NCBI GenBank assembly: GCA_041662125.1 | Contig: JBAZTA010000001.1 | Location: forward strand, 324,761-388,760 | Source of the DNA: Candidatus Omnitrophota bacterium | GTDB lineage: Bacteria; Omnitrophota; Gorgyraeia; Gygaellales; Profunditerraquicolaceae | Direction of reading: 5' to 3' | DNA: 64,000 nucleotides | Shown here: piece by piece, positions 4,975-55,772 of the stretch | Layout: each line of letters opens with the position of its first letter | Numbering within the stretch: position 1 is the stretch's first letter | The notes under the pieces: generated by a model | Seen by the model: only the letters and a program-made list of their open reading frames with translations | Databases searched by the model: none | Told to the model about the DNA's origin: nothing | Program-made: the position numbers and the translations under genes

Positions 4975-6402
4975 CTACACTAAAATACGGTTTTTGCCCT
5001 GTTTTTTTGCCTGGGCCAAAAGCTCTTCAGCTTTTGAAAGCAACTCTTCGGCAGTACTGCCATCAAGAGGATTTTCGCTTAAGCCTCCGCTGACCGTAAG
5101 CCGTCGATTCGTGTCGCTTTCTTGTTTAAAACTTTTTTCTAGATTTTCCCGAATGCCTTCGGCTATTTCTTGCGCCTGCCGTTTATTTTTCTCCGGGAAA
5201 ACAATAGCAAACTCATTATCGTCAAATCGAGCCACGCGGTCAATCTCAGTGACAGAATCCCTGATCAAATACGCGATTTTCTTTAATTGCTCATCCACTG
5301 CTGCCGCATCAACCAAGCTTCGATATTTTACAAAATCATCAATATTCAACAAGACCAAAGAACACGGCCGCTGCCTGACTATTGCCCTGCGAATTTCTTC
5401 TTGCAGCCGTATTAAAATATATGTTTTATTATATAACCCGGTAAGCGTGTCTTTGACTTCCAGCTTTTCCACACGTTGAATAAGCCTCTCATGTTCAACA
5501 GCAATAGCTATTTGCTTGGTAAAAATATCGAGCAATTCCACGTCATCTTTCGAATATGAGAAATTATCTTTGGAATTCCCGACCCCCAGTATTCCAACAA
5601 GGTTTCCTTTTACATAAACCGGCAATGCCAGGGTATTCTTAACTTGGAATCTCTCATAAAAATCTGAAGCCACCTGGTCAGGCCAAACATTATCCTTATC
5701 CAAACACAACTGTTTCCCGGATTTTATCAGAGCTTCAAACAATGGTTCAGAAGAACCCATCGTAATTTTGAATAACCCCTGATAATTTTTTCCTTCAGCT
5801 GAACGCATATACAATGTTTCTTCCAATTCATCCTTAAAGAACAAATAGGAAATTTCCGAATCGGCAAGAAAACGCGCCTTTTCAGTAACTAATTTCAGTA
5901 CCGCATCCAGCGTAACACCTTGAGAGATCAAAGAACTTATCTGTAATAAATGCGTAAAAACAAAAACATGCTGCTGGATGTTCAGGTTTATTTCACTGGT
6001 TTTCTGGCTATAACTCTCTAACTCCTCCATATTACTACGGATACGGCTGGTAAGCTGGTTTAATGTTTCTCCCAGGATACCGACTTCATCAAGAGGCGCC
6101 ATACTCACGGCATGATTGATATTTCCCGAAGATATTACCTGGGCATCCGTTGTAACAATAAGGAAACGGTTAATGATCTGATTAATCAATAAAACACCAA
6201 TACCAGCAATAAATACCGAACTCAACAAAAAAAGCATTATCTGGAAAGTAATGCCTGTTTGAGGGAAAACATAGTTTGCAAGTAAATAGATAACGACAAG
6301 AAAGGGAAGGACAAATATCAGGCAAAAAGCAATACTGAGTTTATCTTTAAGTCTTCTTGATTTTATCAACAGCTTATTGCTCTTTAACACATTTGCCTCC
6401 AC
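4975..6402 (-). CDS. Membrane sensor protein with 2 TM, HAMP, GAF and a degenerate GGDEF domain (predicted catalytically inactive). A GTG start is annotated; an internal GTG is also possible.
   Basis: TGLYNKTYI and LLNIDDF match the GGDEF fold, but the A-site reads RFDDNEF instead of RYGGEEF and the I-site RxxD is replaced by TEID. Confidence 0.8.
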   Translation of the reverse strand: MEANVLKSNKLLIKSRRLKDKLSIAFCLIFVLPFLVVIYLLANYVFPQTGITFQIMLFLLSSVFIAGIGVLLINQIINRFLIVTTDAQVISSGNINHAVSMAPLDEVGILGETLNQLTSRIRSNMEELESYSQKTSEINLNIQQHVFVFTHLLQISSLISQGVTLDAVLKLVTEKARFLADSEISYLFFKDELEETLYMRSAEGKNYQGLFKITMGSSEPLFEALIKSGKQLCLDKDNVWPDQVASDFYERFQVKNTLALPVYVKGNLVGILGVGNSKDNFSYSKDDVELLDIFTKQIAIAVEHERLIQRVEKLEVKDTLTGLYNKTYILIRLQEEIRRAIVRQRPCSLVLLNIDDFVKYRSLVDAAAVDEQLKKIAYLIRDSVTEIDRVARFDDNEFAIVFPEKNKRQAQEIAEGIRENLEKSFKQESDTNRRLTVSGGLSENPLDGSTAEELLSKAEELLAQAKKQGKNRILV

Positions 6403-6610
6403 ATACGAACAGCTTACATACCATTCATTACTTTAACAAAAAAGCTATCTTTCTACGGCCGAACCCGACTTAAAAAAACAATTTATGTATATTTATTATA
6501 CTACGCATCTTCTTTTATTTCAACAAATTAATGAAGCCATGACTTATGGAGCCATCAATTATAATTAAGCGACATAAGTCATCACTTGTAGCTTACTTGC
6601 CGGGCTGAAT

Positions 6611-6661
6611 TATCCTCCGTAGCCCTACCATCATTTTTCTTATCGATAGGCGCAGGAGGAT
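6611..6661. repeat. Repeat family C, copy 1: a stem-enclosed hairpin element about 50 nt long.
   Basis: The 40-nt core agccctaccatcatttttcttatcgataggcgcaggagga is 34/40 identical to 49574-49613. The flanking inverted repeat tcctccg/cgcaggagga covaries with ttcttcg/cgaagaa in copy 2. Confidence 0.6.
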
Positions 6662-6671
6662 CATGAAACCA

Positions 6672-8426
6672 TTACTCAGCACAATCTTTAATCTCCTGGT
6701 CAACAGCTTCCGCCTCACGCTTGAGAAAATCCTTGCCGACTCCCATATCGATAAAATCCCAAGGTAAAACCTCATCTCTGCTTCTATTCTGCAAATAAAA
6801 CTGTGGATCAATATCACACTCTCGAAAAGCATCCATCCACGTTTGAAGGTTAAAATATTCACCCCAGGCATCAAAGCGCGCGCCTTTCGAAAACGCTTTT
6901 AAGATAACAGCGCTTAGTCTGCGGTCTCCGCGCGACAACACTCCTTCCAGAAAACTCATATCCAGATGATGAAAATCAATTTTTAATCGTTTATTTCTTC
7001 CCTGCCCCCTTATATAACCCTGCTTTTCTTTGAGAGCAGCAATCGTATCCATCGCAAACCACTGAAACGGCGTATGAGGTTTAGGGATAAGAGGATTAAT
7101 ACTTATATTGACTTGCGCGGGCCCGGGGCTGAACTTTCTCTTTAATTCCGAAACCCGAGTTGCCAGTTCAATAATCCCATCCAAATCTTTTTTTTCTTCA
7201 AAGGGTAATCCGATCATAAAATAGAGCTTAACATGCCGATATCCATTGGCGTAAGCCTGTTCAAGAACCCGAAAGAATTCTTGGATATCATAATCTTTTG
7301 CCAGTATCCTTCGCAGCCTTTCACTGCCTGCCTCAGGAGCAAAAGTCAATCCTGTTTTCTTTATACTGGCGATAAGCGTTGAAAGATGCTGCAGGATAAA
7401 TTTCGGTTTTATTGAAGGCAGCGACACCGATACGGCATCTTCTTGAAACTTGCCAACCAATGACTGCAATAATATCTCTAACCCTGTATAATCGCTGACA
7501 GACAATCCCGCCAAAGAAATTTCTTCATAACCCGTGCGTTTATATAATTCACACGCCAAATGCAAGGCCTTTTCAGCATCCCGCTGCCGGAAAGGAAAAT
7601 ATTGGACCCGCGCCTGGCAAAAACGGCATCGGTTCGGGCACCCGCGCATAACTTCAAGAGTGATACGGTCATGAATAATCTGTATATACGGGATAAGCCA
7701 ATCCAGAGGATATGGGGATTTATTTAAATCTCCTACGATGCGCTTTTTAACCCTCACAGGCACTCCCGGGTATTTTGGCTTAAACTCTTTTATTACCCCG
7801 GACTCCAGAGAGGTAACCGAATACAATGCCGGGACATAAACACCTTCAATACCTGAGAGCTTTATAAGAAGCTCAATTTTTTCAGCATCACTTTTTTTCC
7901 AGGCATGATAACAATCAATGATTTCCACGATAGCCTCTTCCGCCTCACCGATAACAAAGAGATCAAAAAACTCATGCATCGGCTCAGGATTCAATACCCC
8001 CGGGCCTCCGCCGATAATCAAAGGATAGCTTTTATCCCGCGCACTCGATTGCAGAGGAATAGAGCCGAGCTGCAGCATATTGAGGACATTCGTGTAATGT
8101 AATTCATATCCCAGAGAAAAACCAACGATATCGAACTCCTTAAGCGGCCTTCCTGATTCCAGAGAGAATATTTCCTGATTCTTCTCCCGTAAGACTGCTT
8201 CTAAATCAACCGCGCAGGCAAAAAAACGCTCGCATGCCACATAGGTAAGTTTGTTGAGGATATCATAAATTATCCTGATACCAAGATTGCTCATCCCCAC
8301 ATCATATAAATCGGGAAAACATAAAGCAAATTTTACCTCAGCGCAGGAAATATCTTTTTGAGACATATTCCATTCCCTGCCGATATAACGAGCCGGCTTT
8401 CGCACTTGTAATAAGAAATCTTCCAT
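6672..8426 (-). CDS. B12-binding-domain / radical SAM protein (TIGR03960-like uncharacterized rSAM family).
   Basis: N-terminal VRKPARYIGREWN signature and a CxxxCxxC cluster, GCPNRCRFCQ. Length 584 aa. Confidence 0.8.
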   Translation of the reverse strand: MEDFLLQVRKPARYIGREWNMSQKDISCAEVKFALCFPDLYDVGMSNLGIRIIYDILNKLTYVACERFFACAVDLEAVLREKNQEIFSLESGRPLKEFDIVGFSLGYELHYTNVLNMLQLGSIPLQSSARDKSYPLIIGGGPGVLNPEPMHEFFDLFVIGEAEEAIVEIIDCYHAWKKSDAEKIELLIKLSGIEGVYVPALYSVTSLESGVIKEFKPKYPGVPVRVKKRIVGDLNKSPYPLDWLIPYIQIIHDRITLEVMRGCPNRCRFCQARVQYFPFRQRDAEKALHLACELYKRTGYEEISLAGLSVSDYTGLEILLQSLVGKFQEDAVSVSLPSIKPKFILQHLSTLIASIKKTGLTFAPEAGSERLRRILAKDYDIQEFFRVLEQAYANGYRHVKLYFMIGLPFEEKKDLDGIIELATRVSELKRKFSPGPAQVNISINPLIPKPHTPFQWFAMDTIAALKEKQGYIRGQGRNKRLKIDFHHLDMSFLEGVLSRGDRRLSAVILKAFSKGARFDAWGEYFNLQTWMDAFRECDIDPQFYLQNRSRDEVLPWDFIDMGVGKDFLKREAEAVDQEIKDCAE

Positions 8427-42815: not shown

Positions 42816-42926
42816 ACGTTTATCTCCTTATTTCGGCAATCTAAGAAATTACTTTTCCTCTATGGTATAATTCTACCACAAAAAAAACTCTTATACGAGC
42901 CAATAACACAAGTGAAGGATTATCGA

Positions 42927-42979
42927 CTGCGCAGCACCCCAGCTAATAGGTATGCTGGGTGTGCCCTTTCTGGGCAAGT
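42927..42979. repeat. Repeat family B, copy 1: a two-hairpin element overlapping the 3' end of cca.
   Basis: ctgcgcagcaccccagct-aataggtat-gctgggtgtgccctttctgggcaag aligns with 54976-55029. Both stems, CCCAGC/GCTGGG and GCCC/GGGC, are preserved by compensatory changes. Confidence 0.55.
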
Positions 42980-49178: not shown

Positions 49179-49454
49179 TTATTCATACCCGATCTCAAAG
49201 GTGTCAAATTCTCCGGTAGCGTCCTGCCAATCAACCTGCGTATCCCGGATATAACGGGCAAAAACTTGATTAATCCTGGCTAAGAAATCTTTTAACAGCT
49301 CTTCTTCTGCTTCTGCAACAACTTCAACCTGGCCGTTAGAAAGATTCTTAACCCATCCGCTGACCTGCAATGAACGGGCTATTGATTCTGACGTAAACCG
49401 AAATCCTACACCTTGGACTTTACCGGTATACAATACATGAATCTGCTTCTCCAT
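49179..49454 (-). CDS. acyP: Acylphosphatase.
   Basis: VQGVGFR and GWVKNLSNGQVEV signatures; 91 aa. Confidence 0.85.
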   Translation of the reverse strand: MEKQIHVLYTGKVQGVGFRFTSESIARSLQVSGWVKNLSNGQVEVVAEAEEELLKDFLARINQVFARYIRDTQVDWQDATGEFDTFEIGYE

Positions 49455-49563
49455 GAGACAATGGTATTTAAGGATAAAAAACTTATAAAGGCTGGATTAT
49501 ACACGCAGTCAAAACCAAAAGAAAGGTTTTTTCTTATCAAAATCTATGAAAAAGGGAACCGGC

Positions 49564-49613
49564 TATTCTTCGAAGCCCTACCATCATTTTACTTATTGAT
49601 GGGCGAAGAAGAA
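49564..49613. repeat. Repeat family C, copy 2, immediately 3' of tRNA-Pro.
   Basis: See the copy-1 alignment. It contains a CCATCA/TGATGG hairpin and a TTCTTCG/CGAAGAA enclosing stem. Confidence 0.6.
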
Positions 49614-49688
49614 TCGGGGCGACAGGACTTGAACCTGTGACCTCAACGTCCCGAACGTTGCGCTCTAGCCAAACTGAGCCACGCCCCG
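49614..49688 (-). tRNA. tRNA-Pro (anticodon CGG).
   Basis: Minus-strand sequence CGGGGCGUGGCUCAGUUUGGCUAGAGCGCAACGUUCGGGACGUUGAGGUCACAGGUUCAAGUCCUGUCGCCCCGA. It shows a 7-bp acceptor stem, D-stem GCUC/GAGC, anticodon loop UUCGGGA, T-loop UUCAAGU and discriminator A. Confidence 0.9.
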
Positions 49689-49769
49689 TTACAAATCCGG
49701 ATAGTTCCTTATTTACTATGGAAATTTATACATCAATACGGTTTATAAGTATACCAGAAATCACACCCC

Positions 49770-50369
49770 TTAGCAAGAATTAGCAGTTACTGCTCTTAAG
49801 GATTGTTTTTTCATCAACATATCATACTCAATATTAACCTGAGCAGAAGGGCCTTTAAAACTTAACGTTGTCAATGCCAAAGTATGGGGGATAATATTTA
49901 CACTGATACAATTTGCTTTTCTGCTGGCTATTGTCAAACTGATCCCGTCAACAGCGAGAGACCCCTTTGAGACGATAAAACTCTCGGCTTCTCTGGAAAC
50001 CGCTATCTCAAAAGTCACCGTATCATTACGGTGACTTTTCTTTCGTATAATGCCTACACAATCAATATGCCCGCTTACAAAATGCCCTGATAAGCGCTGA
50101 CCAACCTGCAGGCTGCGCTCAAGATTCACCTTCTCCATAATTTTCAATGTCCCCAAATTGGTCAAAGAAAGTGTCGCAGACATAACATCAAAACTAAGAG
50201 CATCCGCTTCTATCTTAACAACGGTCAAGCAAACACCGTTAACAGCAATACTATCGCCAATTTTAGTATCGGCAATTACCTTTTTTGCTGCAACGGTTAT
50301 CACGGCAACATTCCCGCACCGCGCAATTTTCTTAACCTGCCCTAATTCTTCAACTATTCCTGTGAACAT
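49770..50369 (-). CDS. ribE: Riboflavin synthase alpha chain.
   Basis: MFTGIVEELGQV N-terminus and duplicated lumazine-binding repeats. Confidence 0.9.
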   Translation of the reverse strand: MFTGIVEELGQVKKIARCGNVAVITVAAKKVIADTKIGDSIAVNGVCLTVVKIEADALSFDVMSATLSLTNLGTLKIMEKVNLERSLQVGQRLSGHFVSGHIDCVGIIRKKSHRNDTVTFEIAVSREAESFIVSKGSLAVDGISLTIASRKANCISVNIIPHTLALTTLSFKGPSAQVNIEYDMLMKKQSLRAVTANSC

Positions 50370-50370
50370 A

Positions 50371-50506
50371 GTGAGGCCACATCTTACGTCGCCTTTTGGC
50401 GACGTAAGATGTCTCCTGTCATTTTACTTATCGGGCCGAACTATCCTGCGTAGCTCCACCGCAGCTTTGTTTGTAAACGAGCGAAGCAGGATAATGAAAC
50501 TATCCC
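50371..50506. repeat. Repeat family A, copy 1: a two-hairpin element of about 135 nt abutting the ribE start codon.
   Basis: Nearly identical to 54650-54777. Hairpin 1 is a 15-bp perfect palindrome, acatcttacgtcgcc-tttt-ggcgacgtaagatgt; hairpin 2 is the ~17-bp imperfect inverted repeat actatcctgcgtagctc...gagcgaagcaggataat. Confidence 0.8.
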
Positions 50507-50541
50507 AGATTATTTAACCTTATTTCCGAACCGTCTATTCA

Positions 50542-51636
50542 TTAAACATAACCTTCGATCAAGATATCCTCGCCGATACGCCTGTATTTTACGTTTTTAA
50601 GCTTGATTGCTTTATCAACGCGTGATATTCCTTGCCCCATGACCGAGCTGATAGCATCTTTCCCGCCAATGATTTTCGGGCTTATGAAAAACAAAACCTT
50701 GTCAACCAACCCCTCATCAAATAACGAACCGATCAACGTCCCGCCACCTTCGACAAATACGTTGGTAATTTCTAATTTTGCCAATTTTTTCATCAAATCC
50801 TTTAAATTAACCTGCCTGACTTTTTCTTTGACTTCCAGGATCATTGCCTTGTGTGCCAAAATCTTTCTGTTCTCTATTTCCTGGCCAGCTTTAGCGAGAA
50901 CGGTAGCAATGATCACTTTACTTTTATCTAAAAAGATATTCGCGTCTTGCGGAGTACTCAATTGGCTATCAATAATGATTTTAACCGGCTGATGCTTGGA
51001 AAACCAGGCATTGAGCCGGGGATTATCCCGCAATACGGTATTAACACCAACCATAATAGCATCGTAATTCTTCCTGATACGATGGCTGTATACACGGGAC
51101 TTATCTGAAGTGATCCATTTGGAATCACCGGTTTTAGCGGCAATCTTGCCGTCTAAAGATTGAGCGACTTTGACCGTAACAAACGGTAAATTCTTCGTGA
51201 TATATTTGATAAAAACCTCATTTACTTTTCTCAAACTGTCTTCAAGCACCCCTACTTCCACTTTTATTCTATTATTTCTTAAGAGCTCGATACCCCTGCC
51301 GTTATTGCACGGGTTAGGGTCGATCATGCCCACCACCACTTCTTTAACACCGCTCTCTATGATACGGGAAACGCAAGGAGGGGTCCTGCCAAAATGCGCG
51401 CACGGCTCAAGCGTAACATATAACGTAGCATTCCGGGCATTTTTACCTGCTTTATCCAAAGCAATTATTTCCGCATGCGCAAGTCCGGCTTTCTCATGAA
51501 AACCGCTGCTCACAATACGGCCGTCTTTTACTACCAACGCCCCCACCATCGGATTCGGGCTGGTCGAGCCTTTAGCTTTTAACGCGAAAGCAAGAGCTTT
51601 TTTCATAAAAAATTCATGGCCTCGTTTTATACTCAT
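50542..51636 (-). CDS. ribD: Bifunctional diaminohydroxyphosphoribosylaminopyrimidine deaminase / 5-amino-6-(5-phosphoribosylamino)uracil reductase.
   Basis: CMP/dCMP deaminase zinc motif HAEIIAL...PCAHFGRTPPC and a RibD C-terminal reductase domain. Confidence 0.9.
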   Translation of the reverse strand: MSIKRGHEFFMKKALAFALKAKGSTSPNPMVGALVVKDGRIVSSGFHEKAGLAHAEIIALDKAGKNARNATLYVTLEPCAHFGRTPPCVSRIIESGVKEVVVGMIDPNPCNNGRGIELLRNNRIKVEVGVLEDSLRKVNEVFIKYITKNLPFVTVKVAQSLDGKIAAKTGDSKWITSDKSRVYSHRIRKNYDAIMVGVNTVLRDNPRLNAWFSKHQPVKIIIDSQLSTPQDANIFLDKSKVIIATVLAKAGQEIENRKILAHKAMILEVKEKVRQVNLKDLMKKLAKLEITNVFVEGGGTLIGSLFDEGLVDKVLFFISPKIIGGKDAISSVMGQGISRVDKAIKLKNVKYRRIGEDILIEGYV

Positions 51637-51645
51637 AAGCTTTAC

Positions 51646-52473
51646 CTATTCTATCAGGCTGTCTTTCGCCTGTTTTAATTTCTCCACTAATTCATAAGGG
51701 ATTTTCATTGACCCGATCCTGACCGCGGCTTTAGCATTCCCATGGCAATCTGAACCGCCGGTAACCAGCAATTGGTACTTGTGCGCCAATTGCAAATAAA
51801 AATTAACCATTGCTTGAGAATGTTCCGGATAATGGACCTCTAATCCCATGATACCGCATGCAATAATCTTTAAAAGGGTATCATCATGCGTAATCGTATA
51901 CGGGTGTGCCAAAACAGGGATACCTCCTGCCCCTTTGATCAAAGAAACCGCTTCTTCAGGAGACAACTTAAAACCAGACACATAAGCGGGCGAACGGTCA
52001 CCGATATATTTCTTAAATGCCATCTCAACACAACTTACCAGTTTTTCTTTAACCAGAGCCCTGGCAACATGTAATCTGCCGACAGTACCGTTACCGGAAA
52101 GCGCAAATACCGCCTGAGGGTCTAACCGAACACCGATACCGTGCAGTTTTTCTATTATCTTATAAATCCGCTCAACGCGTATCTTACGCAAAGACTCAAG
52201 TTGCAGGAGTAATGCCTGATTTTGACAATCAAACAGATACCCCAGGATATGCACTTCAAGCCGCTCATACTGGGCAGTCAATTCTATGCCCGGTAAAACT
52301 TCGATACCATACTTGAGCGCATTTTCAATTATTAAGGGGATACCCTCAACCGTATCATGGTCGACGACCGCGATAGCCGAAAGGCCCGCTTTTTCTGTTT
52401 GCCGGATGAGTTCTTCGGGAGAAAATGTCCCATCAGAAAACACGGTATGTAAATGTAGATCAGCGAATTTCAT
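51646..52473 (-). CDS. PHP-domain phosphoesterase (TrpH/YciV-like) embedded in the rib operon. The start is trimmed to MKFADLHLH.
   Basis: DLHLHTVFSDG, VVDHD, GIELT and GGSDCHG PHP motifs. Confidence 0.8.
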   Translation of the reverse strand: MKFADLHLHTVFSDGTFSPEELIRQTEKAGLSAIAVVDHDTVEGIPLIIENALKYGIEVLPGIELTAQYERLEVHILGYLFDCQNQALLLQLESLRKIRVERIYKIIEKLHGIGVRLDPQAVFALSGNGTVGRLHVARALVKEKLVSCVEMAFKKYIGDRSPAYVSGFKLSPEEAVSLIKGAGGIPVLAHPYTITHDDTLLKIIACGIMGLEVHYPEHSQAMVNFYLQLAHKYQLLVTGGSDCHGNAKAAVRIGSMKIPYELVEKLKQAKDSLIE

Positions 52474-52486
52474 AGGTAAGGGGATT

Positions 52487-52903
52487 TTATTTATTCTTTT
52501 CGAGTTTAACCTTGTCCAGGATACCGTTGACGAATTTACCGGCGTTGACATCTGAATATTTCTTAGCAAGCTCAACACCTTCATTGATCGCTACTTTTGG
52601 AGGGATATCATCTCGGAATAAAAGTTCAAAACTTGTCAGGCGAAGGATATTCCTATCGACAACAGCCATTCGGTTAAGTTCCCAATTCGCAGCGTATTGC
52701 GCGATCTTTGCGTCAATTAACGCTAAATTCTCAACAACTCCCTTTACCAATTCTCCGGTAAACTGACGCACATCATCATAAATTTCTTCTTCACTATGAA
52801 CCTGCCAGAAATTATTCAAAGCAGCCTCATACTGATCATGGGTAATATCGATCTGATATAAAATCTGCAGCGCGAATTCCCGGCCTTTTGTGCGTTTACG
52901 CAT
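52487..52903 (-). CDS. nusB: Transcription antitermination factor NusB.
   Basis: 138-aa all-helical protein with RKRTKGREFALQILYQ N-terminus and a NusB signature. Confidence 0.85.
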   Translation of the reverse strand: MRKRTKGREFALQILYQIDITHDQYEAALNNFWQVHSEEEIYDDVRQFTGELVKGVVENLALIDAKIAQYAANWELNRMAVVDRNILRLTSFELLFRDDIPPKVAINEGVELAKKYSDVNAGKFVNGILDKVKLEKNK

Positions 52904-52917
52904 AATAACCTATTACC

Positions 52918-53385
52918 TTATTTTATCTGTGTAAATACGTTTACCATTTCAATAGCGCTCAAAGCGGCATCCCGGCCCTTATTACCATCTTTGGTCCCGG
53001 CACGTTCAATGGCTTGTTCGATAGTATCAGCGGTAATAACACCAAAAATAACCGGCATACCGGTACTCATGGAAACGCTGGCAATACCTTTTGAGACCTC
53101 TGCGGCAATATAGTCAAAATGGGGCGTAGAACCGCGGATAATTGTTCCTAAACAAATAACTGCGTCATAAGCCTTGGTTTGAGCTAACTTAAGCGCGGTA
53201 ACCGGAATTTCAAAAGCTCCGGGGATCCAGGTAACCAAAATGTCATCCTTATCAACTCCATGCCTGGCCAAGGTATCAATACAGGCAGCAACCAATTCTT
53301 TGGTAATAAAATCATTGAAGCGAGAGACAACAACAGCAAATTTCTTGTTTTTAGCTATCAAATTACCTTCGATTATCTTCATCAT
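52918..53385 (-). CDS. ribH: 6,7-dimethyl-8-ribityllumazine synthase.
   Basis: [13 protein letters not shown] and GAFEIP motifs. Confidence 0.9.
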
Positions 53386-53436
53386 CTTTTATTCCCTCCT
53401 TAGATTCAATTCCCCATTTTTAAAACCCCGGACAGT

Positions 53437-54648
53437 TTAGGTAATCGTAATCTGATGCCCGAGCTTCTCTTTTTTTGTCTTAAGATATTTATAATTAAGG
53501 GGATTTGGTTCAATTTCAAGGGCAATGCGCTCCACGACTTTTAATCCATAGCCCTCTAACCCCACGATCTTACGAGGATTATTCGTAATAAGCTTTATAT
53601 TCTTAAGCCCCAGGTCAACCAATATCTGTGCGCCGATTCCGTAATCACGCAAATCCGCTTTATGGCCTAACGCTTCATTTGCCTCAACAGTATCCATCCC
53701 TTTATCCTGCAAATTATATGCGCGTATTTTATCAACTAATCCTATACCGCGGCCTTCCTGGTTCATATAGAGGATAACACCTTTTTTTTCTTTCTCGATC
53801 ATCTGCATCGCGGTCTTAAGCTGCCTGCCGCAATCACAACGCAGCGACCCGAAAACATCACCGGTCAAACATTCTGAATGAACACGGACTGCTACCGGCT
53901 GGCTTTCACAATTACCCATTACTAAAGCAACATGGACTTGATTACGGGTGAGGTCTTTATACACGATCAACTGATACGTACCGTATTCAGTCGGAAGGAC
54001 AGTTTCAGAAGCCCGCTCGATCAATCGTTCAGAACGGCGGCGGTATTCAATCAGCTGAGCAATTGAAGATATCTTGAGACTATGTTTCCTGGCAAACGCT
54101 AAAAGCTGCGGCAGGCGTGCCATAGACCCGTCATCGTTCATGATCTCACAAATAACCCCCGCGGGATAAAGCCCTGCCAAACGCATCATATCTACCGTCG
54201 CTTCAGTATGTCCGGCCCTGACTAAAACACCGCCGCGGCGCGCCATTAAAGGAAAAACATGTCCCGGCCGGATTAAATCTTCCGGTTTGGACTGTGGATT
54301 AATCAGCACTTCAATGGTTCGCGCCCGGTCAAATGCCGAAATACCGGTTGTCACCCCTACTGCCGCATCAACAGAGATCATCCAAGCAGTAGAAAATGAA
54401 TCTGACTGTCGTACTAATCTGCGCGTCTCCTGCATCGGCTGTAAATCCAACTGAGACAGCCGTTCTTCCTCCATAGGGATACAAATGAGCCCGCGGCCAT
54501 AGGAAGCCATGAAATTGATATCCTGAGGCTTAACAAACGAGGCTGCCATAACCAGGTCGCCTTCATTCTCACGGTCTTCATCATCTACAACTACGACCAG
54601 CTTGCCTTTTTTTAAATCATCTAATATTTCCGGGATCGAATTTAACAT
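53437..54648 (-). CDS. ribBA: Bifunctional 3,4-dihydroxy-2-butanone-4-phosphate synthase / GTP cyclohydrolase II. The start is trimmed to MLNSIPEIL because the upstream 30 codons translate the repeat.
   Basis: DHBP synthase motifs (DEDRENEGDL) and GCH-II cysteines CDCG. Confidence 0.9.
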   Translation of the reverse strand: MLNSIPEILDDLKKGKLVVVVDDEDRENEGDLVMAASFVKPQDINFMASYGRGLICIPMEEERLSQLDLQPMQETRRLVRQSDSFSTAWMISVDAAVGVTTGISAFDRARTIEVLINPQSKPEDLIRPGHVFPLMARRGGVLVRAGHTEATVDMMRLAGLYPAGVICEIMNDDGSMARLPQLLAFARKHSLKISSIAQLIEYRRRSERLIERASETVLPTEYGTYQLIVYKDLTRNQVHVALVMGNCESQPVAVRVHSECLTGDVFGSLRCDCGRQLKTAMQMIEKEKKGVILYMNQEGRGIGLVDKIRAYNLQDKGMDTVEANEALGHKADLRDYGIGAQILVDLGLKNIKLITNNPRKIVGLEGYGLKVVERIALEIEPNPLNYKYLKTKKEKLGHQITIT

Positions 54649-54649
54649 A

Positions 54650-54777
54650 GTGAGGCCACATCTTACGTCGCCTTTTGGCGACGTAAGATGTCTCTTGTAA
54701 TTTAACTTATCGGGCCGAACTATCCTGCGTAGCTCCACCGCAACTTTTCTTATTTACGAGCGAAGCAGGATAGTGAG
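54650..54777. repeat. Repeat family A, copy 2 (full), abutting the ribBA start codon.
   Basis: gtgaggccacatcttacgtcgccttttggcgacgtaagatgtctc...actatcctgcgtagctccaccgca...gagcgaagcaggatagt. The 11 nt before the ATG (gtggcctcact) are identical to those at ribE. Confidence 0.8.
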
Positions 54778-54820
54778 AAAATACGTAATCCTAGTTCTTA
54801 TATTACTCTTATCATTTACT

Positions 54821-54890
54821 GTCGGTTCGAACTATCCTGCGTAGCTCCACCGCAACTTTTCTTATTTACGAGCGAAGCAGGATAGTGAAA
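54821..54890. repeat. Repeat family A, partial copy 3 (hairpin 2 only).
   Basis: tcggttcgaactatcctgcgtagctccaccgcaacttttcttatttacgagcgaagcaggatagtg. Confidence 0.75.
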
Positions 54891-54900
54891 CCACCTATAA

Positions 54901-54928
54901 AAATAAAACCCGAAGGAAAATCTTCGGG
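54901..54928 (-). terminator. Rho-independent terminator, the expression platform of the FMN riboswitch.
   Basis: The minus strand reads CCCGAAG-AUUUUC-CUUCGGG followed by UUUUAUUUUU. Confidence 0.75.
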
Positions 54929-54940
54929 TAATAGAATATA

Positions 54941-55168
54941 CCTTAATCTTCTTTCATCTGGACTTTAACCACCTACTGCGCAGCACCCAGCCATAAATGA
55001 TTGGCTGGTATGCCACTTTCTGTGGCACCATCGGCTCTGGAATTTAACCAGATCTGTATTCTGCTTGTGCAGAATACTCGCGGGCTATTACACCCGGCGT
55101 TATTGGAAACGCCGGTGTGCGCCTTTTGCGCTACCGCCGGTTAGGAATTACACCTTACCCCGAAGATC
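54941..55168 (-). promoter_or_regulatory. FMN riboswitch (RFN element) aptamer, unusually long because of inserted hairpins.
   Basis: The minus strand reads GAUCUUCGGGGUAAGGUGUAAUUCCUAACCGGCGGUAG...AGCCCGCGAG...AGCAGA...GGUUAAAUUCCAGAGCCGAUGGUG...AAAGUCCAGAUGAAAGAAGAU, matching the RFN consensus. Confidence 0.85.
54976..55029. repeat. Repeat family B, copy 2, located inside the FMN aptamer's 3' variable region.
   Basis: ctgcgcagcacccagccataaatgattggctggtatgccactttctgtggcacc, with stems CCAGCC/GGCTGG and GCCAC/GTGGC. Confidence 0.55.
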
Positions 55169-55177
55169 AATTCAGTA

Positions 55178-55205
55178 AGTATACCACAAAATCTTGTCTT
55201 GTCAA
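55178..55205 (-). promoter_or_regulatory. Sigma70-type promoter of the rib operon.
   Basis: The minus strand reads TTGACA-N16-TATACT, about 10 nt upstream of the aptamer 5' end. Confidence 0.6.
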
Positions 55206-55292
55206 CCGGTATAAAACAACTATAATATAGGTAAGAAAACCGAAATAGGCTTTTTTACCTATAAGGATCCACCTAAGCCATCAAATAGATCA

Positions 55293-55772
55293 ATGCAACC
55301 CACTCTCTTAGCAATACATACATTTCTCATTAAAAACCGTTTGACTCTCGCCGTAGCAGAATCATGCACAGGAGGATTAGTCTCTTCCTTATTCACCAGC
55401 CTCTCCGGCAGTTCCCGCTATTTTTTCGCAGGGATTGTCAGTTACAACAATAAAGCTAAAGAGAACCTGCTGCATATCCCACACGCATTAATTAAAACTT
55501 ACGGGGCGGTTTCCGCAGAAACTGCACAACACATGGCTCTTTCAGTCAGAAAATTGACAAAAACAGATTTTGGCATAGGAATAACCGGGATAGCCGGCCC
55601 TACCGGAGCAATTTCAGGAAAACCCATTGGCACTGTTTTTATTGCGCTAAATTCCCGACAGAAAAACCTATGCGCCAGATTTTCCTTCTCTGGAACAAGG
55701 GCTCAAATAAGGAAAAAAACAACGAGTAAAACTTTATTTATTTTAAAGAGGTTTTTACACATAAACCAATGA
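55293..55772 (+). CDS. CinA C-terminal domain protein (PncC-like nicotinamide-nucleotide amidohydrolase).
   Basis: LAVAESCTGG signature; 159 aa. Confidence 0.8.
   Translation: MQPTLLAIHTFLIKNRLTLAVAESCTGGLVSSLFTSLSGSSRYFFAGIVSYNNKAKENLLHIPHALIKTYGAVSAETAQHMALSVRKLTKTDFGIGITGIAGPTGAISGKPIGTVFIALNSRQKNLCARFSFSGTRAQIRKKTTSKTLFILKRFLHINQ

Follow-up and report, generated by a model that had tools for sequence, protein, structure and literature searches.

FMN riboswitches serve as structural models and as antibiotic targets. Their Rfam family, RF00050, includes the ribD leader of Bacillus subtilis and the aptamer of Fusobacterium nucleatum (PDB 3F2Q), and the norm for its aptamers is about 130-140 nt. 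These systems have a six-helix junction with conserved junction sequences, T-loops in L2 and L5 with receptors in L6 and L3, respectively, and a site before riboflavin genes. [quoted passage not shown] Such a scheme, with a long-range antiterminator and the 3' arm of P1 as anti-antiterminator, is known for the rib leaders of B. subtilis and Lactococcus lactis (PMC8966005). A T-loop study of the FMN riboswitches in Rfam 14.0 described how the T-loops of L5 and L2 dock into receptors in L3 and L6, respectively, and found these receptors to be either terminal loops of 6-7 nt or internal loops with an extra surface helix (bioRxiv 10.1101/2022.12.26.521914). Internal-loop receptors never occurred at L2-L6, for which the authors suggest a folding cost and selection against them (bioRxiv 10.1101/2022.12.26.521914). 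The internal-loop arrangement (IL-TLR), present in FMN and cobalamin riboswitches and common in L3 of the former, has its extra surface helix between receptor position 1 (U) and ANA. Our search of the literature found nothing relevant on Omnitrophota riboswitches or on repeat insertions in aptamers.

The riboswitch described here lies in a 64-kb stretch of DNA from a Candidatus Omnitrophota bacterium (hereafter the window). It has the same six-helix junction with its conserved junction sequences, T-loop and receptor sequences in the same loops, a site before riboflavin genes and a predicted platform of the same terminator-based type, but departs from the norm in its length of 230 nt, in the two-hairpin modules that follow U1 of both receptor loops, and in the 249 nt of repeats between its terminator and the start codon. 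Furthermore, its L6 receptor would not be a terminal loop, an arrangement not found in the Rfam 14.0 survey (bioRxiv 10.1101/2022.12.26.521914). The extra surface helix between the U and ANA is shared with the IL-TLR, but in the window the arrangement would also occur in L6, and 31 of the 55 L6 inserts found in the clade place two hairpins side by side, as a three-way junction, in lieu of a single coaxial helix. Two features distinguish the locus: the two-hairpin module at both T-loop receptors, including L6, and a leader invaded by a variable tandem array of another structured repeat, a copy of which also lies before ribE.

Relatives were obtained from GTDB genomes, in which the closest ribBA genes had 73-78% protein identity and were nearly all from Candidatus Omnitrophota, and from metagenome contigs, which yielded 120 more loci when scanned with the 3' end of the clade's aptamer. 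Insert and spacing lengths were determined by anchor-based measurement in up to 92 distinct clade aptamers. Single relatives are given below by their locus numbers (e.g. L142), and window features lie on the minus strand unless stated otherwise.

The aptamer, comprising P1-P6, was located at 54942-55171 by its match to RF00050, with 89.2 bits (gathering score 66.2, E = 4.9e-19). The alignment is full-length (model positions 1-138 of 138, no truncation) and has all of P1-P6 paired, with a high posterior probability except in two inserts. An RFN-type aptamer of about 228 nt had been claimed by the first-pass annotation, which named the RF00050 covariance-model score as its check; a match of 230 nt above the gathering score bears this out. 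L3 measures 44 nt compared with 12 in the model, and L6 measures 65 nt compared with 5. With P1-P5 constrained, the RNA folded at -93 kcal/mol. The minimum-free-energy fold of the whole leader contained non-native pairings inside the aptamer and did not separate the alternatives for P6. Both T-loops are present (UGUAAUU in L2 and UUAAAUU in L5), as are the receptor nucleotides (U...UAAAGU in L6 and U...UAAUAGC in L3), each interrupted by an insert. The core junction sequences are intact, as had been claimed, although the AGCAGA listed among the conserved cores belongs to the P4 stem and the true J4/5 segment is ACAGAUC. The score of the rib aptamer (89 bits) compares with 106-110 bits in compact relatives. 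Segments of the aptamer did not recur elsewhere in the 64-kb window by blastn-short, except for one 14-mer. By every sequence-level test, then, the window element is a genuine member of the FMN riboswitch family, and its aptamer core is canonical.

The best promoter-like site of the region 49400-55400 is TTGACA-N16-TATACT at 55205-55178, a sigma-70-like promoter with 11/12 matches and a TG before the -10 hexamer. It is located upstream of the aptamer, in agreement with the earlier assignment, and its sequence and position are kept in the close relatives L142, L150 and L191 and also in more distant Omnitrophota. A divergent promoter-like site (55199-55226, plus strand) faces a pncC/cinA-type gene at 55293, and between it and the rib promoter lies an inverted repeat with 16-nt arms, TATAGGTAAGAAAACC and GGCTTTTTTACCTATA, at 55226-55263.

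The genes on the same strand 3' of the riboswitch are ribBA, ribH, nusB, a PHP-family phosphatase gene, ribD and ribE, followed by tRNA-Pro. The aptamer thus sits in the leader of the riboflavin biosynthesis genes ribBA, ribH, ribD and ribE. The first of these, ribBA (53437-54648), was identified by NCBIfam with 604.6 bits (cutoff 569) and has its ATG at 54648-54646. A version of ribBA with an N-terminal extension, starting at the GTG at 54738, was rejected: the extension is translated repeat, and the proteins of relatives begin with MFN or MLN. The PHP-family phosphatase gene (51646-52584), between nusB and ribD, has a nucleoside bisphosphate phosphatase as its best NCBIfam match (172 bits, far under the cutoff), and could be a candidate for the missing dephosphorylation step of the riboflavin pathway. 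Its listed open reading frame overlaps nusB, and the true start is probably further downstream.

The aptamer is followed by an intrinsic terminator (CCCGAAG-AUUUUC-CUUCGGG and a T-run, 54897-54928), which the first-pass annotation had also placed here. Its stem lies at 54929-54908, followed by TTTATTTTTA, and the T-run ends at 54897. [quoted passage not shown] This 5' arm resembles the 3' strand of P1 (GAAGAUU). The antiterminator pairing covaries in relatives, with CUUUGGG opposite CCCAAAG in L013, GUCUUC opposite GAAGAC in L001, and GGAGAUU shared by the 3' strand of P1 and the terminator 5' arm in L002. At the sequence level, terminator and antiterminator are mutually exclusive. The computed energies were -109.9 kcal/mol for P1 plus terminator and -101.6 kcal/mol for the forced antiterminator; because P1 plus terminator comes out as the more stable state by nearest-neighbour energies even when no ligand is bound, the switching decision would be kinetic.

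The switch is most likely an OFF switch that acts by transcription termination. In this mechanism, bound FMN would stabilize P1 (55162-55170 with 54943-54951), which would hold its 5' strand, so that the CCCGAAG/CUUCGGG hairpin and its U-run would form and the transcript would end. [quoted passage not shown]

The inserts in both receptor loops belong to one family of two-hairpin modules, family B. A covariance model built from the module (R2) matched 55091-55131 in L3 (49.5 bits), 54984-55025 in L6 (40.6 bits) and 42935-42975 (32.1 bits, E = 7e-6). The L3 module occupies 55091-55132, in the context GCGG-U^...^UAAUAGC-CCGC. In L6, the insert at 54968-55026 follows the U of UGG-U and comprises the module, the tail GCUGCGCAGU and AGGUGGU. 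The third element (42926-42975) is not part of the riboswitch but lies between rbfA and a tRNA nucleotidyltransferase gene, and was detected only by the covariance model; it has a tail (GCTGCGCAGT) in common with the copy in L6 (GCUGCGCAGU). Lengthening of the aptamer by inserted hairpins that include a family-B element, as described in the first-pass annotation, is consistent with these matches. Each module is built from a short GC hairpin with a loop of 4-5 nt, 1-2 nt of linker, and a second hairpin with an invariant ACC/GGU base, a bulged G and a loop of about AUCNNUUN, which is conserved as AUC..UU across copies with differing stems. Among 15 copies from the window and its relatives, 95.5% of the cells were paired and 9 of the 12 pairs had changed on both sides; some of these copies were chosen by a pattern that requires pairing, which inflates the paired fraction, not the covariation. 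A scan of Rfam at permissive E-values returned no family for either repeat, A or B.

Both window inserts are placed after the first U of the T-loop receptor and before (N)AAAG, and the same holds for all expanded relatives. In compact relatives these loops read GCGG-UAAAGC-CCGC (L3) and UGG-UUAAAGU-CCA (L6). The insert positions would lie at the surface of the fold, by which the receptor nucleotides (U...AAAG) would be retained; L6 would thereby become an internal-loop or three-way-junction receptor instead of a terminal loop of 6-7 nt. At its end the L6 insert has a second UGG, which also allows a native-looking local P6 hairpin (UGG-UUAAAGU-CCA), with the insert then located in J5/6, and the folds with these two candidate P6 pairings differ by 1.3 kcal/mol. 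The L6 insert is flanked by UGGU, a possible target-site duplication; none was evident at the family-B copy at 42926-42975.

Expanded aptamers are common in the clade. Aptamer length ranged from 111 to 412 nt (median 167) among the 92 distinct clade aptamers, and L6 inserts of at least 16 nt were present in 55 of them and absent in 37. L3 was without an insert in 60 of 91 clade riboswitches. The L6 inserts span 16-150 nt, with cores and terminators intact, and this class keeps the receptor nucleotides, with NAA before AGUCC. Of the 55 inserts, 24 close on themselves and 31 form two side-by-side hairpins. Outside the Omnitrophota, L6 was a terminal loop in all but one of the approximately 10 riboswitches among the loci. 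The exception, from an unclassified MAG (L060, ~2205-2329), has a 25-nt L6 insert, so the clade sampled here is not strictly alone in having such inserts. Two Omnitrophota FMN riboswitches with intact cores and terminators were found by eye (L009, ~5630-5850; L011, ~2180-2550); their L6 inserts measure ~85 nt and ~250 nt, respectively, and neither riboswitch was reported at the Rfam gathering threshold.

Family-B copies occur in L3, P4 or L6 of many relatives, and change rapidly in number and position. L3 holds two modules in L142 and L150, the nearest relatives, as against one in the window. Hairpin 2 of the window's L6 module is identical in L142, and L002 and L007 have almost the same L3 insert as the window. 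One variant (ACCAACUUUUCC...AAGUUGGGUG) occupies L3 in L142 and L6 in L191, and in L011 and L189 a module is nested in the loop of another module. Copies outside riboswitches were found not only at 42935-42975 of the window, but also beside tRNA genes in L006, L010 and L013, and in L003 and L012. In the metagenome loci, 56 copies were counted in 20 kb of aptamer compared with 11 (of which ~5 are real) in 710 kb outside, so that family B is ~180 times denser in aptamers; 49 of the 52 aptamer copies were in sense and 3 in antisense orientation. By these counts, family B does not look like a general genomic repeat, yet it is mobile or exchangeable. A third small element, a long hairpin with ..CTTAYG...CRTAAG.. 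arms and the tail GYGCTCATTAAAG, was seen in L6 of L011, L119, L124 and L189 and near the tRNA of L013, and resembles the second half of the window's composite unit described below.

The leader downstream of the terminator contains a different repeat. From the end of the T-run (54897) to the ATG of ribBA (54648) there are 249 nt, which hold two tandem composite units; the first-pass annotation had already placed about 250 nt of family-A repeats there. Unit 1 (54777-54889; R1 covariance model, 89.2 bits) consists of a family-A palindrome, a linker and a weak hairpin. Unit 2 (54649-54776; R1, 92.1 bits) consists of the palindrome, a linker, a perfect 15-bp hairpin (54659-54690) and the tail UGGCCUCACU, which abuts the ATG. 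The 57-nt core of family A is an imperfect palindrome of which there are two exact copies, at 54719-54775 and 54831-54887 (0 expected by chance). Its fold has an outer stem of 7-10 bp, a 3x3 internal loop and a 4-bp stem, then an inner stem of 4 bp that carries a GGUR bulge and is capped by an AUAAGAAAAG loop; in the composite unit, the palindrome is followed by the linker, the second hairpin and a tail ending in ...CUCACUAU. Compensatory change was observed in 3 of 11 pairs among 4 copies. In total, the 64-kb window contains five family-A palindromes, each of them intergenic and on the minus strand. Two precede ribBA and a third ribE, a fourth lies at 6601-6668, and the fifth abuts the 3' end of tRNA-Pro. 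The last of these (49554-49621; R1, 80.8 bits) is diverged; it starts at the last bases of tRNA-Pro(CGG) (49614-49688), is followed by CCCTTTTTC, and may mark the end of the transcription unit. The palindrome at 6601-6668 is part of a further composite unit (6525-6672) with a different long hairpin and the tail GGCTTCATTAAT, located between a B12-binding radical SAM gene and a GGDEF gene with no start codon adjoining.

The copy between ribD and ribE (50370-50503) ends at the ATG of ribE (50369). It is 92% identical to unit 2 over 133 nt, and both have the perfect 15-bp hairpin and end at the start codon (...UGGCCUCACU-AUG-UU). In the window ribD and ribE are separated by 172 nt (50370-50541), whereas the ribD stop of relatives is 0-3 nt from the ribE ATG. 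The layout that all the Omnitrophota relatives have in common, taken here as ancestral, is a TTGACA-N17-TAnAAT promoter, the FMN aptamer, a terminator of the CCCGAAG...CUUCGGG type, a Shine-Dalgarno sequence and the ATG. Because relatives have the ribD/ribE abutment and a Shine-Dalgarno sequence before ribBA, the repeats at both sites are insertions right before the ATG. Most relatives have 47-80 nt between the end of the aptamer and the start codon, with a mode of ~50 nt. The 294 nt of the window are the second largest distance measured (n = 69), while 22 of the 69 related riboswitches exceed 120 nt and 8 exceed 200 nt. The spacing between terminator and ATG, which had been called unusual, is thus long but not unique.

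The size of the array changes fast, from 1.5 units with a nested palindrome in L142 and L150 through 2 units in the window to 4 in L191, where one unit is interrupted. The final hairpin and tail are identical in the window, L142, L150 and L191, and at ribE, while the adjoining linker varies; this complete preservation is more conservation than expected for junk. Weaker A-like elements in reverse orientation occur between the terminator and ribBA in L019, L084, L095 and L146, which indicates that the spacer after the terminator is a recurrent landing site. The expanded aptamer and the invaded leader are typical of this Omnitrophota clade and not unique to the window locus. The first reading was correct in all its elements, but omitted the exact siting at the T-loop receptors of L3 and L6, the recurrence and fast change within the clade, and the repeat before ribE.

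No Shine-Dalgarno sequence was visible before the ATG of ribBA. Many other genes in the window also have no obvious Shine-Dalgarno sequence, so that its absence at ribBA is not alarming by itself. The AGGUGG right after the terminator (~54890-54895) may be the displaced original. In the 3' arm of the 15-bp hairpin, an out-of-frame AUG (AAGAUGUGG) opens a frame of 14 codons that overlaps the start of ribBA (54646-54690); it is probably sequestered in the stem. Neither promoter-like nor terminator-like sites were found inside the repeat array, and control by the upstream terminator should therefore be unaffected. In the proposed sequence of events, two family-A units would have been inserted before the ribBA ATG, replacing the short Shine-Dalgarno spacer of relatives. 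They are most likely selfish or neutral repeat DNA carried in the read-through transcript, and regulation by termination, acting upstream of them, would be independent of them.

In their organization, the repeats resemble REP/BIME, BOX, RUP and Correia-type elements (for general background on REP see PMC3733652 and PMC12306157). They have in common with these short, structured, palindromic intergenic repeats the modular composite units, tandem clusters, nested insertions and variation in copy number among strains. Compensatory differences in the hairpins (3/11 pairs in A and 9/12 in B) and copy-number polymorphism were both observed. Unlike REP/BIME, however, family B seems to cluster in a single RNA, the FMN aptamer, instead of being dispersed over the genome, and two of the family-A units stop precisely at a start codon. 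Among the operon genes of the window there was no associated transposase. An assignment to the GTAG/CGTC-tagged REP classes (PMC3733652) was set aside, as GTAG does occur in the tail of the L6 insert and on the strand complementary to family A, but not at the position typical of REP.

Taken together, we consider it probable that the locus encodes a working FMN riboswitch which controls the operon by premature termination, that family-B modules were added to its aptamer at L3 and L6, and that the family-A repeats ride along. A very different reading is that the riboswitch is decaying: insertions into L6, the loop that docks with L2, together with loss of the Shine-Dalgarno sequence would have inactivated regulation and left the operon constitutive or under another signal. 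Given the published absence of internal-loop receptors at L2-L6, the L6 insert could impair folding, and the Rfam score of 89 bits, below the 106-110 bits of compact relatives, points the same way. Yet the junction core, the two T-loop sequences and the receptor nucleotides have all been preserved, the complementarities of P1, terminator and antiterminator are all perfect, and no alternative promoter was found downstream. Moreover, 60% of the clade has L6 inserts alongside intact cores and terminators, and the presence of such inserts in 55 of 92 aptamers implies that they are compatible with a maintained switch. Decay is, in our judgement, very improbable. A milder departure from the probable account concerns the modules only. 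Family-B modules might have a function in the riboswitch (as an aid to folding, a timing device or a protein binding site, for example) and be kept at the T-loop receptors by selection. Their ~180-fold enrichment in aptamers over flanking DNA and their 49:3 sense orientation argue for a function, as do the invariant ACC/GGU base, the bulged G and the conserved AUC..UU loop amid differing stems, and the near-identity of the L3 insert in the window, L002 and L007 at a ribBA protein identity of only 73-77%. However, the modules are dispensable, as 37 of 92 aptamers have no L6 insert and 60 of 91 no L3 insert. They shift in number and position among close relatives: L3 has one or two, and a variant that L142 has in L3 is in L6 in L191. 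They also occur as nested copies (L011, L189) and outside riboswitches (42935-42975 of the window, beside tRNA genes in L006, L010 and L013, and in L003 and L012). We therefore regard a selected function of the modules as conceivable but doubtful.

A similar question arises for the composite unit before ribBA and ribE, whose 15-bp hairpin and UGGCCUCACU tail might be a cis-regulatory element, or an element of translation or stability, that coordinates both genes. The 133-nt unit ends exactly at the start codons of two riboflavin genes, where it replaces the ribBA Shine-Dalgarno sequence and breaks the ribD-ribE stop/start abutment of relatives; L142, L150 and L191 have the same hairpin and tail despite a varying linker, and all five family-A copies of the window are sense-oriented. 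Against this, the number of units varies and nested insertions are present, a related unit (6525-6672) lies away from any start codon and another follows tRNA-Pro, and the A-like elements of other lineages are found in either orientation. Local transposition or gene conversion would also explain two sites in one operon, and a coordinating role for the unit seems unlikely to us. The two ideas can be joined, with family B as a small self-propagating RNA module that was preferentially installed and then selected at the T-loop receptors of FMN riboswitches, and the conserved 15-bp hairpin and tail at the start codons of ribBA and ribE as an element for Shine-Dalgarno-independent translation or stability. 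This joint reading is tentative, and we think it rather unlikely.

If the family-B part of the joint reading is true, the clade would represent the first natural FMN riboswitch class in which the receptor of the L2-L6 contact is non-terminal, a configuration that was thought to be excluded and that is found here in ~60% of one Omnitrophota clade. A clade in which most members are expanded in L6 offers a natural test set for the proposed folding penalty, and bears on how far a kinetically controlled riboswitch can expand. For genome annotation, it means that riboswitches with large inserts, such as those of L009 and L011, fall under the Rfam gathering score and are being missed. Finally, the repeats in the leader mean that small structured repeats can replace the Shine-Dalgarno region of a gene without loss of the gene.
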